Sequence record: NZ_CP095281.1
Length of the DNA: 64,000 nucleotides
DNA from: a plasmid
Reading direction: 5' to 3' (one strand)
Below are positions 7,817 to 13,800 of this stretch, piece by piece (the stretch's first letter is position 1; each line of letters starts with the position of its first letter). Position numbers: made by a program.

Positions 7817-10800
7817 TGAGCAAGCCGGTAGCCAAAATGCTGCACTTACTGATCAACTCAAGCAACAAGCCGAAATGCTGGCCAGATTGCAAGATGGCCT
7901 GCTGCAGGGAGCGGAGCGGTTCGAACAGGCTGCCAGTGAGGCTCGCCATGGCTTTGTTGAGATGAAGCAAACGCAGCAACAATTCCTGACAGGGGTGAGA
8001 ACCGAATTCAATGCCTTAGGGAAGGTGCGAATAAGTCATATGGCACGAGAGCATTTACTGGTAACCCATTGATATTAAATGACTAAAATTTTCATTTTTT
8101 GTTCGTGGGATACTTGTTCGCACTTTCCTTAGCGAAAGGCAGGCCCCCACTACCAGATGCACCAATATCAGATGTTCTGGAGTGGGAGTATTCAGGAAAT
8201 CGACATCACCCGACAGAAAAGCCGGTGTCAATATTAGAACCGTTGATAGAGGCATTCACTAAGCCAGGGGATATTGTTCTAGATCCGTTCGCGGGTTCAG
8301 GTTCGACATGCGTTGCGGCTGCAAGATTGGGGCGTCGGTTTATCGGTGTTGAGTTATTACCTCAATATCATAAAGAAGCCATAGCAAGGTTGGAACCATT
8401 CTCCAAACGACAAGCTGCATGAGGTAGTGATATGAAAATTCATTCATTAGATAAGATAGAGTATGTCTCTGAATTGCTGCGACTGGCATCTGTGGCAATT
8501 AATGAAATATTAGTTATTGAGTTGACACATGAAGACAAAAAAAGTCGTGTAATTGACAATCTATTGAAGAGGCATCTTTGCACAATTGAGGCTGATGTTT
8601 TATCAGCATACGAGAAAACTGGCATCATCAGTTCTTGCTTGAATGAAATAAGGGGGGAATAAGAGGGGGCCCCTTCGGCTCGCGCTAAAGCGCTCGTCCG
8701 TCCCACTCGTCTATGCGGTCGGCTTCGCCGGCCGCAGACTCGCCGAGCCCGTTCCGGTCTCGGGCTATCGCTAGGGCCGGATGCCTAAAAGAAATGCAGC
8801 CTTAATATCGCTGTCCGCAAGCGGACCCACCCTCTCCGTAGTAACTGTCCTGTCCCGGGCCGCAAAGACGGTTTAGCAGGGAGGGGGGGGGGAGCCTGCC
8901 CCAGGTAAACACTCCAAAGAAGTTTCGGCCGACCTGCCACCTTCCCGAATATCAACAACGGAGGGGCGGCCTTATACTCGCTTGCGCTGCGCGCGCTCGT
9001 TTTAATATGTAGAATAAACCAGCCATTTTATTTTAATTGCAGCACTGCAATTCATTGCCTGATATAACCATCGTGATATAATTAAACCAGTTAGAAAACC
9101 GACGCCGGGGCGTGGCGATAAGGAGATGATATGAATACTGCAATGCCTGTTTCTGTTTCACCATCTTTCATCCCAAACAATGAAATTGGCATAATGATTG
9201 CCAATTTCAAAGAAAGGGTTGAATGCGTGGATTATGATGATGATGAAAATGCTCTGAATACAACCAGACTCATAACGGAAAGAACCTCATTCGTTGTTGA
9301 GGTGTCATTGTACGGCGGGATCACATTGTGCATTTCACGGGAACGTCTTAGCACGGAATTTTTCCCTTCATTTTCGGAATGCGATGATAAAGACGATAAC
9401 GAAGTTGAAGTGGTTTATAGTGCAGCAGTGTTGAAGGCAAATGAAGCCTACGCCGAACAAGTATATAATATCGAATGGTGTTCTGATTGGCGTTCTGATT
9501 GGTTTCCTCATGAGAGCAGCATCGCCGATGGAATTAAAATGGCGTGGGAATATCTGAATAACCAGGGAAGCTCTACGGGTGATGAAGTGTCATTTCCGTT
9601 TCCAAGAGCGGGCATGGCTACAGTTTTTGATTATTCATTCAAACGCTGGCTCTACCGCAAGAATATGGATTGGGTAATGAGCGTAATGGCCAGCAGGTTT
9701 CAATCCCATTTTTCGAGTTAATAAATAATGCAGAAACAGTAATGCCATGGTGGGGAGAAAGTCAAAGCCCCACCAACAAAAATAACAATGTGAACGAGCA
9801 TTATATTATCGTATAATAAAGATATTCGAGAGGCATCCTCTCAATCCCGTTGGCCGGGGTGCGTGGCCCGAGGAAAAGATAGTGAACGAAATAATTTTTA
9901 GCATCAGACCCCAAAGATCTACCGAGTATGTAAGACCAAACTACCCGAGCGCAGTAGACACGGCATTATTGAATATCCTGAGTGCCGAAGCCTTGTTATG
10001 CGAACTACGCGAAACAAAGCAGTTAGACCTCCCCGTGGCAAAACACCTAGAAAAGGCAAGCGATAGTGCCCTTAACATGGTGATATTCGCAGGCGAGGTA
10101 CTGGGACACTATCTTGCGGCAGGTTCACCAGTTGCAGCACTGCATATATCAGTACGCATATCAAAGGCCAAGTTAAACTGCTTCAATCAGGTGCTGGCCC
10201 GCATCGAGGGTTTAGAAAAATCCTGGTATGTAAGGGATGCTTGGGAATATGGGTTAAGGACCGGGGAGTCAAAATATAACGAGATGTGGGGGACGGAGAG
10301 AACTCCTAATGCTCCCTGGTTGTGGGAGTAAGATTAAAGGGGCCTAGGCCCCTTTTTTTTTGCACGCCCTTCGTATCGTGATCATATCGTCAGACACTAT
10401 CAGTAACGCACCATCTACCTCATCAGCCCGCTTCAGCTCATCAAAGTTAACAACCCGATAACCACCTCCCTGTTTATCTGTCAGGTAGATACCCAACTCC
10501 CTTATAAGCGAATCCGCAGCCTGAAACTGTTGGTGTTGCATAGGACTATCCCGAATTTTTATTAGCAGCCTCGATTGGGCTGTTATATTTTGCACGTAAT
10601 ACCAGTTGATGCAAATAGATTTTTACACTCATACGCCGTGTGGCTTTATTAAAACATTTTAACGCCGTTACACCCTTAAAAGCGCCTAGGGGCAGACCCA
10701 ACGACCCTGGAAGGAAGCCTCACGGCAGGGGGAGAAGAAGGGCACACCCTACGCACCGGCTGGTGCAAGGGGTTCCATCGGATGAATCCCTTGCTGCGTC

Positions 10801-13800
10801 TGGCCTAGAGGGTGGGTTACGCGAAAGTTACACTATAGCCCATGAGAACCCATCTATGGGTTACGCAAAATGCATTATTGAGGTTACGATGGTGCCTTGG
10901 TGTGCTGATAATGCTATTATCGCGTAACGTGAAGAACGTTACGCGAGGTGATAAGTGAGGCAGAAAGACATCCAGGTTAGGCATCGTAGGTTCCTGGAAA
11001 CCGAGGCGATGACAGTGAAGTTTAGGGGCTTGGCTCCTGAGATGATCCAGCACATGTCCAGAACGGACAGTGAGACCTTGAGTGACTGGATAAAGGACGC
11101 TGTTAGGTTCAGATTGCGTTATGACTTGAAAGGGGATTTGTCACTATCAGAGTTCATATCGCTTCAGCCTTCAATCCCCTTTAAAGCAATTGACGCCAAT
11201 GCAGATGAGGTTGTTATTAGAGCCCTTGAGGAGTTAAACGCTATGGCCGGTCGGGCGGATAGCGATATGGCTCTTGTTATAAGGATGTTGTTCCAGATTA
11301 CTCATTTCATGAGGGCTGGACTTGGCGATTTGATTTTTTCTAATCCAAATCTCAATACAAATGGAATCGACGGGCAAAGGGTTTTTGAGGAAGGAAAAAA
11401 GGTATCGCATGAATTCCTAAAGAGAGCAAGGGGGGAGAATGTCGGGTAATAATACCAGGTCGGAAGAGCTAGTTCGTGGTGGGCAGATTGTCCAGCATAA
11501 GTTCACGATGTTGGCTCAAGTTATAAAAACAGCAGCATTCTTTGGTGTGATAGTGTTTATAGCAACCGTCTATGCACGATACATGCTGGGAACTGACGAC
11601 TATCAACGATACTTGTTTGGGACAGCGTTAAAGACTACGGTGTATTTTCATCCCAACCCTAAAGATACCATGGAGTTCATTACACCCAATGGAGACAAGA
11701 GAATAGTTCGAGTTGTTGATGTTATAAACAACAAAAGAGTGTCTGATAATTTTGATTACGTTATGACGCTCATCGAAAGTGGAATGCTCATTGGGGCAGG
11801 TCTATTTGTTTTATTAGTGCTGCTACTCATATTTTATTTCATAAGATATGGTAGGGAAACAATGAGGCGTGAGGTGATTAATGGCATTCCCTTGGAGCCA
11901 GATTCTCGGAAAGTAATAAATCTTATTGAGGCGATGAATGCCAGGGTTGGGTATGTATCAAGATACCATGTTGGTGGTATACCTTTCCTCCACAACACTG
12001 AAACTTTCAGCATTCAAATTACGGGTGCGCAAGGGCAAGGTAAGTCGCAAACTATTTGTGCCTTGCTTGATGAAATAAGGGCCAATGGGGACAGAGCTAT
12101 CATTTACGATAAGCAGCGCTCCTTTATAAAGTATTACTATGACGAAAAGATAGATAGGATCGTCACTCCTTTTGATGAGCGGTCGGTAGGGTGGAATATA
12201 CATGCTGATGCACATGCAATTCATGAATATGAGTCAATTGCACAAGCAATGATACCCATGCAGGAAGATTCCAACAAAGATCCATATTGGGTCTTGGGGG
12301 CAAGGACAATATTGGCGGTAACTGCGGCAAAGTTTAGACATGAAAACAGGTTGAAGACAAAAGATCTGCTACAGACTCTTTATAGCCTTTCGTTGGCCGA
12401 TATTGCCAAGCTCCTCAAAGGTACACCTGCTGGTGCTTTAATTGACGAAAAGAACCCAAAAACATCTGAGTCAATTCGCTCCGTGCTTACTGCCTATATT
12501 AAGTCAATGAACTATGTCTTTGATGATGTGCCATATGAAGATCTTTTTAGTTTTAAAGAATGGGTGTCTGGTGGTTCTGGATGGTTATTTCTAACATCGA
12601 GGGGAGACATACATACAACGGTTAAGCCGCTTTTTACCGCAATGATTGAAGTGGTAATAAAAGCATGCATGATGCTTGATCAAGATAGAAATAGACGGAT
12701 ATTCATCATACTTGATGAAGTACAGTCTTTGAACTTTATACCGGCGTTTACCGATGGGCTTGCAGAATTAAGGCAGTTTGGCATTGTATTTGTAATAAGT
12801 TATCAGCTTCAAGCTCAATTAAGGACAATCTATCGGGAAACAGGAGCAACCACGATTAGTGGATTGCTAGGAACCAGGGTTGCATATCAAACACCTGATG
12901 AGCAAACAGCTTCTTGGTTAAGTAAGAACTTCAGTGAGACTGAAGTAAAAGAAATGGAGACAACTAAAAGCTTTGGGGGGTCATCATTAAGAGATGGCGT
13001 TACGGTAAGCCCGGACACAAAAAAAAGAGAGGTCGTTCCTCCTAGCATGATTATGAACCTTGAACCACACAATTGCTTCGTGAAAATGGCAGGTGGGTCA
13101 ATTCCAGTTACACAACTTTATATTCCTTACAAACATCGAGATGAGATTGCAAGCCCATTTAAAGAAAGAGATTTGTCTCACCTTGCATTCGGACATCTGA
13201 CGTTCATTGATGATCAAAGCCACCAAAGCACAGAAAACAATGAACATGCCAGACAGCCCAAGCCTGTTGACGTTGAGGGTATTGTTCCGCCTCGAGCCAA
13301 GCAATTACCTAAGAAGCCTAAAACTGTGAGGAGGGACAAAACAGAAGTTGCAGAACTGCAAATGCAGAAGCCACTGTTTGATCCCACATTTATGAGTCCA
13401 TTTACCGAAAAAGAAAGTGTAAGTGGGAGTAGTGATAATGAGGCTTTGACGCTAGTGCTTACCGGTTCAGAAGCTGCGGAGATAATTGCACATGCCGATG
13501 GTCAGTATCTTGAGGTCACAACACTTGAGCCTCTGCATGAAGCTGAAACAGTTAATGATGAAGTGAGAAGCCTGGATAACAAGCAGACAAGATCACTTTC
13601 AGAACCGGACTTGGAGATATAGCCAATGCTATCTTTATCAAACATGACATCTGCATCCGGTGCCGCTCAGTATGCGGCATTAGGTGATGATTACTACATG
13701 GATGCCCCAGATATAATGCCAGAAGAATTATTGCCTGATGTAAGCACAGGCAACACCCCAATTCTTCAAGAAGATGAAGTGATAAGTGGTGGTACTGGTA

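Follow-up and report, generated by a model that had tools for sequence, protein, structure and literature searches.

At which position, and on which strand, does a MOBF relaxase nick the plasmid that encodes it? The question is raised by a 64,000-nucleotide stretch of plasmid DNA (sequence record NZ_CP095281.1; the whole stretch is called the window below), in which an intergenic region at about 10542-11008 precedes genes for a presumed relaxosome accessory protein, a type IV coupling protein and a MOBF relaxase. A first-pass annotation had placed an origin of transfer (oriT) here, with a nic core like that of plasmid R388 on the plus strand and with neighbouring repeats as accessory-protein sites. 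That the region, which adjoins all three genes, is the oriT is very probably correct. A better nic site than the one then proposed is, however, found outside the 10800-10950 stretch, about 90 bases to the left of the proposed core and on the opposite strand. We give a probability of about 0.8 to the reading that the intergenic region is the oriT of the pAsa8 plasmid family, with a predicted MOBF nick between minus-strand nucleotides 10744 and 10743. Judged by its sequence, the site is a further, so far unannotated, MOBF oriT, in which an inverted repeat like IR2 of R388 is joined to a U-turn like that of F and R100. No mention of an oriT was found in two published accounts of pAsa8, and a full-text literature search for the nic strings returned unrelated primers only.

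The minus strand from 10768 to 10737 reads 5'-TT GCACC AGCC GGTGC GTAGGGTGT/G CCCTTC-3', with the slash at the predicted nick. The predicted nic region (10766-10743, minus strand) consists of a distal arm GCACC (10766-10762), a loop AGCC (10761-10758), a proximal arm GGTGC (10757-10753) and the nine bases GTAGGGTGT (10752-10744), so that, in the numbering of R388, the cut would fall between T25 at 10744 and G26 at 10743. The site was first exposed when the intergenic region was compared with that of a Vibrio fluvialis plasmid, with which it shares CACACCCTACGCA, and it is marked by its sequence, its hairpin fold, its conservation and its match to a profile of relatives.

Saturation mutagenesis of R388 has shown that both the proximal arm (positions 12-16) and the stretch from 17 to 25 are required, that G17, T18, T21 and T23 cannot be changed, that position 26 must be a purine, and that the loop (positions 8-11) and positions 27-32 tolerate any base (PMC4176350). 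At the site in the window, each arm agrees with its counterpart in R388 IR2 (GCACC GAAA GGTGC GTATTGTCT/A) in five of five positions, the hairpin GCACC-AGCC-GGTGC folds like IR2, and the proximal arm directly abuts position 17. Beyond the arm, R388 is matched at G17, T18, A19, G22, T23 and T25, and a purine follows at 26. The window departs from R388 at three positions: at 20, which is free, at 21, where it has G as have F and pKM101, and at 24, where a G gives GTGT, the form found at nic in most MOBF plasmids (PMC4176350). The string GGTGC-G-T-A-G-G-G-T-G-T/G conforms to the published MOBF nic-core rule in each of its bases (G17, T18, T/G21, G22, T23, T25 and a purine at 26). Of the nine bases that precede the nick, all but one agree with F (GTGGGGTGT/G), and likewise all but one with R100 (GTAGTGTGT), when the nic sequences of these plasmids are taken from PMC3074121. 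The strand to be nicked is complementary to the relaxase operon, which is the same strand and direction as in R388, and the relaxase encoded beside it has the catalytic tyrosines and the three-histidine motif of the MOBF family.

The natural variation of the site mirrors the mutational map of R388, with the loop and positions 27-32 free and positions 12-26 fixed. In an alignment of eight Aeromonas-family sequences, the accessory proteins of which are 71-98% identical to that of the window, positions 12-26 and both arms are invariant, so that the hairpin stem is the same throughout the window's own family, while the loop (AGCC, CAAC or CAGC) and positions 27-32 vary. The V. fluvialis plasmid, which adds ACCC to the loop variants, has the same gene order and keeps the nic motif, with a relaxase that is about 44% identical. 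Its stem is GCAGC/GCTGC, which means that a change at position 13 is compensated by one at position 6.

The motif is also found at larger distances. A scan of metagenomes gave 80 related loci, 70 of them with enough upstream DNA. In 52 of these 70, whose relaxases are 32-75% identical to that of the window, the strand opposite the relaxase has the pattern [CG]TGC[GA]T-N3-4-GT[GC][TC] at a distance of 2450-3510 nt upstream of the relaxase match; in the window, this distance is 2870 nt. The exact string GTGCGTNNNGTGTG has 12 copies on the minus strand of related loci and none on the plus strand. When an nhmmer profile was built from 37 relatives, with the window's own family and the 75% identical relative left out, and both strands of the 64 kb window were searched with it, the top match was 10759-10743 on the minus strand (E = 0.021), followed by a match with E = 1.7. 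A genome scan for relaxase relatives returned near-identical Aeromonas sequence and one short fragment only, and a protein search with the relaxase domain gave only fragments of at most 44% identity, without useful context.

Several points weigh against a minus-strand nick at 10744/10743, or against parts of the region's reading as an oriT. The cut is placed by analogy with R388 and F. With so short a motif, the E value of the profile match (0.021) is modest, and the compensated stem pair of the Vibrio plasmid is a single event and modest evidence. The inverted repeat of the largest related clade is either weak or shifted to another register, which means that not all relatives share the hairpin. 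In the neighbouring 146-aa protein, neither a ribbon-helix-helix nor another DNA-binding signature was detected, and its structural model is unreliable. In addition, a consensus promoter scan of the region called no promoter for the relaxase operon, and a scan with the consensus of integration host factor (IHF) gave no site in it.

What, then, is the role of the repeats between the predicted nick and the operon? All strings quoted in the first-pass annotation are found in the window. Repeats of the GTTAC type do exist where three or four TGGGTTACGC(G/A)AAA boxes had been counted, but there are only two full copies of that sequence (10813-10826 and 10857-10870), with shorter copies of the GGGTTACGC-type box at 10881 (GAGGTTACGAT) and in both arms of a palindrome at 10920-10946. 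The actual repeat core is GTTAC, with starts at 10816, 10827, 10860, 10883, 10924 (minus strand) and 10938. Nowhere else in the 64 kb window is GTTAC as dense as in these six copies within 135 bp, and a count of six was not reached in any of 300 shuffles. From their offsets of 0, 11, 44, 67 and 122, the direct copies seem to be phased at about 11 bp. Boxes 1-3 (10816, 10827 and 10860; plus strand), which are invariant in relatives, lie in 10813-10870 and span the R388-like 10-mer CTATAGCCCA; the same segment has a lineage-specific palindrome, AACCCAT-CT-ATGGGTT. Box 4 (10883-10887) forms, with the block TGGTGTGCTGATAATG, a segment (10883-10912, plus strand) that is conserved in the alignment of relatives. 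Boxes 5 and 6 converge in the palindrome TCGCGTAACGT-GAAGA-ACGTTACGCGA (10920-10946), which is perfect (100% complementary) and, with 11+5+11, slightly longer than the 25 bp ascribed to it. A seventh box (CGTTACACC, 10667-10671, plus strand), which emerged from the alignment and the cluster scan, lies on the leading side of nic.

In all aligned relatives the six boxes hold their positions while the spacers between them diverge. The arms of the palindrome are shorter in relatives, but both GTTAC cores and their 14-bp spacing are kept, and from this follows that the conserved item is the box pair and not the hairpin. Boxes and palindrome that stay in place while the sequence between them drifts fit the earlier proposal of accessory-protein sites beside nic. 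By analogy with other origins the GTTAC boxes are probably sites of both the accessory protein and operon control, and the palindrome is a probable operator or accessory-protein site.

A more restricted role would be that 10800-10950 is the promoter and operator of the operon and nothing else, with the boxes bound by a repressor that takes no part in the relaxosome and with the nic hairpin as the minimal oriT. Between box 4 and the palindrome, 60-100 bp upstream of the start codon, there is a conserved GATAAT block, as would be expected from such an arrangement, and the operon promoter may lie here, with TTACGA (10884-10889) as -35, a 17-nt spacer and GATAAT (10907-10912, in TGGTGTGCTGATAATG) as -10; the sole match of the promoter scan is at 10562-10589 (plus strand) and is poorly conserved in relatives. 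Furthermore, GGTTACGC occurs seven times in the window when 1.05 occurrences are expected, and the five places other than the oriT would allow for a regulator with several targets. These other copies are, however, scattered singles instead of clusters. In R388 and F, moreover, the sites that regulate the operon double as accessory sites of the relaxosome, and therefore the regulatory and the relaxosome roles need not be separate. We regard a purely regulatory stretch as rather unlikely. The related idea that GGGTTACGC is a plasmid-wide operator was rejected, since beyond the oriT its copies stand singly and for the most part within open reading frames (ORFs).

The nick of the first-pass annotation was a TrwC-like cut of the plus strand in CT/ATAGCCCA, between 10834 and 10835, with the GGGTTACGC boxes as accessory sites. 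Its starting point was sound: the R388 sequence was given correctly, reading GGTGCGTATTGTCT/ATAGCCCAGA and containing GCGCACCGAAAGGTGCGTATTGTCTATAGCCCAGA, and the 10-mer CTATAGCCCA is present as described at 10833-10842 on the plus strand, within gttacaCTATAGCCCAtgag (10827-10846), as its sole exact copy in the window. The 10-mer is in the correct intergenic region and is invariant in the closest relatives (about 94% identical). By our own arithmetic, the chance that one of the 23 10-mers in the 32-nt nic region of R388 occurs on either strand of a 470-bp intergenic region is about 0.02. The match is, in other words, moderately unlikely by chance, yet there is no conservation behind it. The 10-mer together with the next 20 bases is the most variable part of the intergenic region among the aligned relatives. 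Relatives with conserved relaxosome genes have CTGTAGAGCA, CTATCGACAA/T or CTATCGACCG in place of the 10-mer, it is unconserved in A. veronii, A. hydrophila and metagenomic relatives, it is absent from the V. fluvialis plasmid, and the nhmmer profile of the relatives does not detect it.

The comparison with R388 itself also speaks against a plus-strand nick. The nicked strand of R388 is the one complementary to trwABC and runs away from trwA, whereas the 10-mer is on the operon's own strand, which means that its orientation is inverted. When the nick is put at CT/AT, the bases at R388 positions 17, 18, 21, 22 and 23 are A, G, A, C and A instead of G, T, T/G, G and T, and the eight matching bases ATAGCCCA (10835-10842) become positions 26-33, so that the identity falls almost wholly on positions that R388 can dispense with, mostly 27-32. 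Plus-strand 10826-10842 thus has neither the essential positions of a MOBF nic core nor the 5' inverted repeat, the fold at this place having -1.6 kcal/mol (z = +0.8). A cut here would also bring the relaxase operon into the recipient first and the antirestriction and methylase genes last. We consider it very improbable, and the 10-base identity is most likely a coincidence.

A nick a few bases 3' of the palindrome at 10920-10946, on either strand, as in origins with a strong inverted repeat beside nic, is hardly credible: the palindrome is the strongest hairpin of the region (-13 kcal/mol, z = -7.5) and lies near the operon start, but the bases that follow it, ATAATAGCATT on the minus and AGGTGATAAGT on the plus strand, lack the pattern G17-T18...GTGT/R, its arms reduce to two GTTAC cores in relatives, and the family profile has no match there.

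Given the minus-strand nick at 10744/10743, transfer would proceed as follows. On the minus strand, the relaxase (13626-17075) would recognise the proximal arm of GCACC-N4-GGTGC together with the next nine bases, GTAGGGTGT, cut between T 10744 and G 10743, and remain bound to the 5' end. Its relaxase domain would be expected to cleave 5'-GCACCAGCCGGTGCGTAGGGTGTGCCCTTC after GTGT, but not 5'-GGGTTACGCGAAAGTTACACTATAGCCCATGAG. The minus strand would then be transferred leftwards, with the leading-region genes first and the relaxase operon last. The stretch 10800-10950 would be the trailing side of the origin, where the product of 11009-11449 would bind the GTTAC boxes, bend the DNA to aid nicking and also repress the operon promoter; this double role of the small protein is proposed by analogy with the TrwA sites of R388 and the TraY and TraM sites of F.

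This polarity may be compared with the order of the genes on the other side of the predicted nick. The window DNA is 94% identical to the Aeromonas plasmids pAsa8 and pAsa8-b, its sole matches in the plasmid database. It also carries F-type transfer genes (TraG_N, TraC, TraH), ParA/ParB and a RepA gene of the IncFII family, from which follows that it is plasmid DNA. Since pAsa8 has been shown experimentally to be conjugative as a whole plasmid (PMC10673383), a working oriT must exist on it. The genes upstream of the intergenic region in pAsa8, pAsa8-b and other relatives, for antirestriction, ParB-like and DNA methylase proteins, are of the kind typical of a leading region, and all of them point to the intergenic region. 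They face the nic site, and therefore the minus strand is their template; leading-region genes have been reported to have such a uniform orientation (PMC11541004). When the minus strand is nicked at the predicted place, it leaves 5' to 3' toward lower coordinates, and the upstream plus-strand genes enter first.

In the window itself, ParB, methylase and antirestriction genes of pAsa8 are replaced at 303-7212 by curli genes (CsgG, two curlin-repeat proteins and a CsgC-like protein). The same segment has a truncated UvrA-like gene, 89% identical to chromosomal DNA of A. caviae, and an ISKpn3 (IS1595-family) element lies at about 6203-7181. It looks like a chromosomal fragment that was captured beside the leading region. 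Also on the leading side of the predicted nick, a 12-nt inverted repeat (10635-10646 and 10715-10726, 92% complementary, 68 nt apart) has its outer parts kept in relatives; judged from its sequence, it could fold as a hairpin in the incoming single strand and serve priming or as a single-strand promoter. Directly after the stop codon of the relaxase is a GC-rich tandem array (17154-18388) of about six copies with a period of 187-202 bp. A matching unannotated gap is about 2.0 kb long in pAsa8 and 3.2 kb in pAsa8-b, and this difference means that the array may vary in length.

The gene next to the origin, for the presumed accessory protein (11009-11449, plus strand), encodes 146 aa from an ATG at 11009, preceded by GAGG at 11003; an alternative start of PGAP style, GTG at 10955, would give 164 aa. 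The 146-aa protein had no Pfam match even at E = 10 and no match in the PDB, and hhalign gave no match to TrwA or to the ribbon-helix-helix proteins of the related loci L022 and L061. An AlphaFold2 model of it is unreliable (pLDDT 44); in it, an N-terminal coil is followed by helices at 10-18 and 24-39. In several relatives, the genes found in this place encode proteins that match RHH_1 above threshold. With no family signature in the 146-aa protein itself, its link to the GTTAC boxes is proposed from its position only.

Next in the operon are the genes for the type IV coupling protein (11439-13622, plus strand; TrwB_AAD_bind, E = 7e-103) and for the relaxase-helicase of 1149 aa (13626-17075, plus strand; TrwC domain, E = 5e-76). 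Y16, Y23-Y24 and the HxDxxxHTH motif of the relaxase align with TrwC and with the Legionella and Vibrio relaxases. Between the catalytic tyrosines and the remaining TrwC fold there is a low-complexity insert of about 85 aa (residues ~28-112, PEELLPDVSTG...GKPIYNS), which is absent from the relaxases of the V. fluvialis plasmid, Legionella pLPP and R388. The 75% identical metagenomic relative (L010) matches residues 1-420 of the query, so that the insert is probably present there too. That the GTTAC boxes and the 146-aa protein form a previously undescribed relaxosome accessory module, together with a MOBF relaxase bearing an unusual, disordered insert of this length, is a speculative and doubtful proposition. 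The N-terminus of this Aeromonas-type relaxase is also found, with 84% identity, in a 485-bp sequence labelled Bacillus pumilus (NKHG01000183.1), probably as a contamination of that assembly.

The left bound of the intergenic region is a small divergent ORF of 65 aa (10344-10541, minus strand), which is transcribed away from the oriT. Aeromonas relatives conserve it, where it is called as a gene, and the V. fluvialis plasmid has a counterpart in the corresponding place. The ORF had no Pfam match and could encode a second relaxosome protein or a leading-region protein.

Plasmids of the pAsa8 type are conjugative and carry multidrug resistance in Aeromonas, the fish pathogen A. salmonicida among them. 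A predicted nic site with its strand gives the polarity of transfer, the leading region and a minimal fragment for mobilisation or tracking studies. In an environmental MOBF clade (metagenomic loci L013-L083), a near-invariant putative nic, cgCAGCACCCGTGCGT(A/G)(C/G)GGTGC/ATTACAAA, lies about 2.7 kb upstream of the relaxase match, on the strand opposite the operon. Of the small genes that separate this nic from the coupling protein, several encode ribbon-helix-helix proteins. The motif GTGCGT-N3-GTG(T/C), when it occurs on the strand opposite the relaxase operon and about 2.7 kb upstream, is a probable nic mark of this large and mostly uncharacterised clade and could serve the automatic annotation of oriT. 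A caution also follows: an identity of ten bases to a famous nic site may sit wholly in its uninformative part.

Among known systems, the Ptw plasmid Dtr of Burkholderia cenocepacia (PMC4853378) has, like the window, F-type secretion together with an R388-like block of accessory, coupling-protein and relaxase genes, and an intergenic oriT upstream of the small accessory gene. Hosts and sequences differ, and no R388-like nic sequence was found in Ptw, whereas the window has a clear one.

With F and R100 (IncF), the window shares the pre-nick bases but for one base each, as given above, G at +1, a hairpin that abuts G17, the F-type genes TraG_N, TraC and TraH, and a replicon of the IncFII-RepA family. 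The hairpin arms of F are, in contrast, GCAAAAA/TTTTTGC, and the operon layout of the window is like that of R388 and not traM...traI. No TraY, TraM or IHF-type sites were recognised in the oriT region of the window. TraI of F has 1756 aa and the window relaxase 1149 aa, with a domain that is about 34% identical to F-type (IncF) TraI.

R388 (IncW) differs from the window in its U-turn, GTCT instead of GTGT, and at positions 20 and 21. The window has G24 where a TrwC substrate has C24, and TrwC does not transfer substrates with G24 (PMC4176350); cross-recognition is therefore not expected. The relaxase domain of the window is only about 35% identical to that of R388 and has the insert of about 85 aa, the 146-aa protein is without similarity to TrwA, the GTTAC boxes are unrelated, and the mating apparatus is F-type, while PLSDB/MOB-suite assigns MPF_T to R388. 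In the organisation of the origin, on the other hand, the two are alike: oriT, small accessory gene, coupling protein and relaxase follow each other in the same order, the nicked strand is opposite the operon with a purine at +1, and identical 5-bp arms GCACC/GGTGC with a 4-nt loop are followed by G17-T18 and, as predicted for the window, by a nick 9 nt past the arm.

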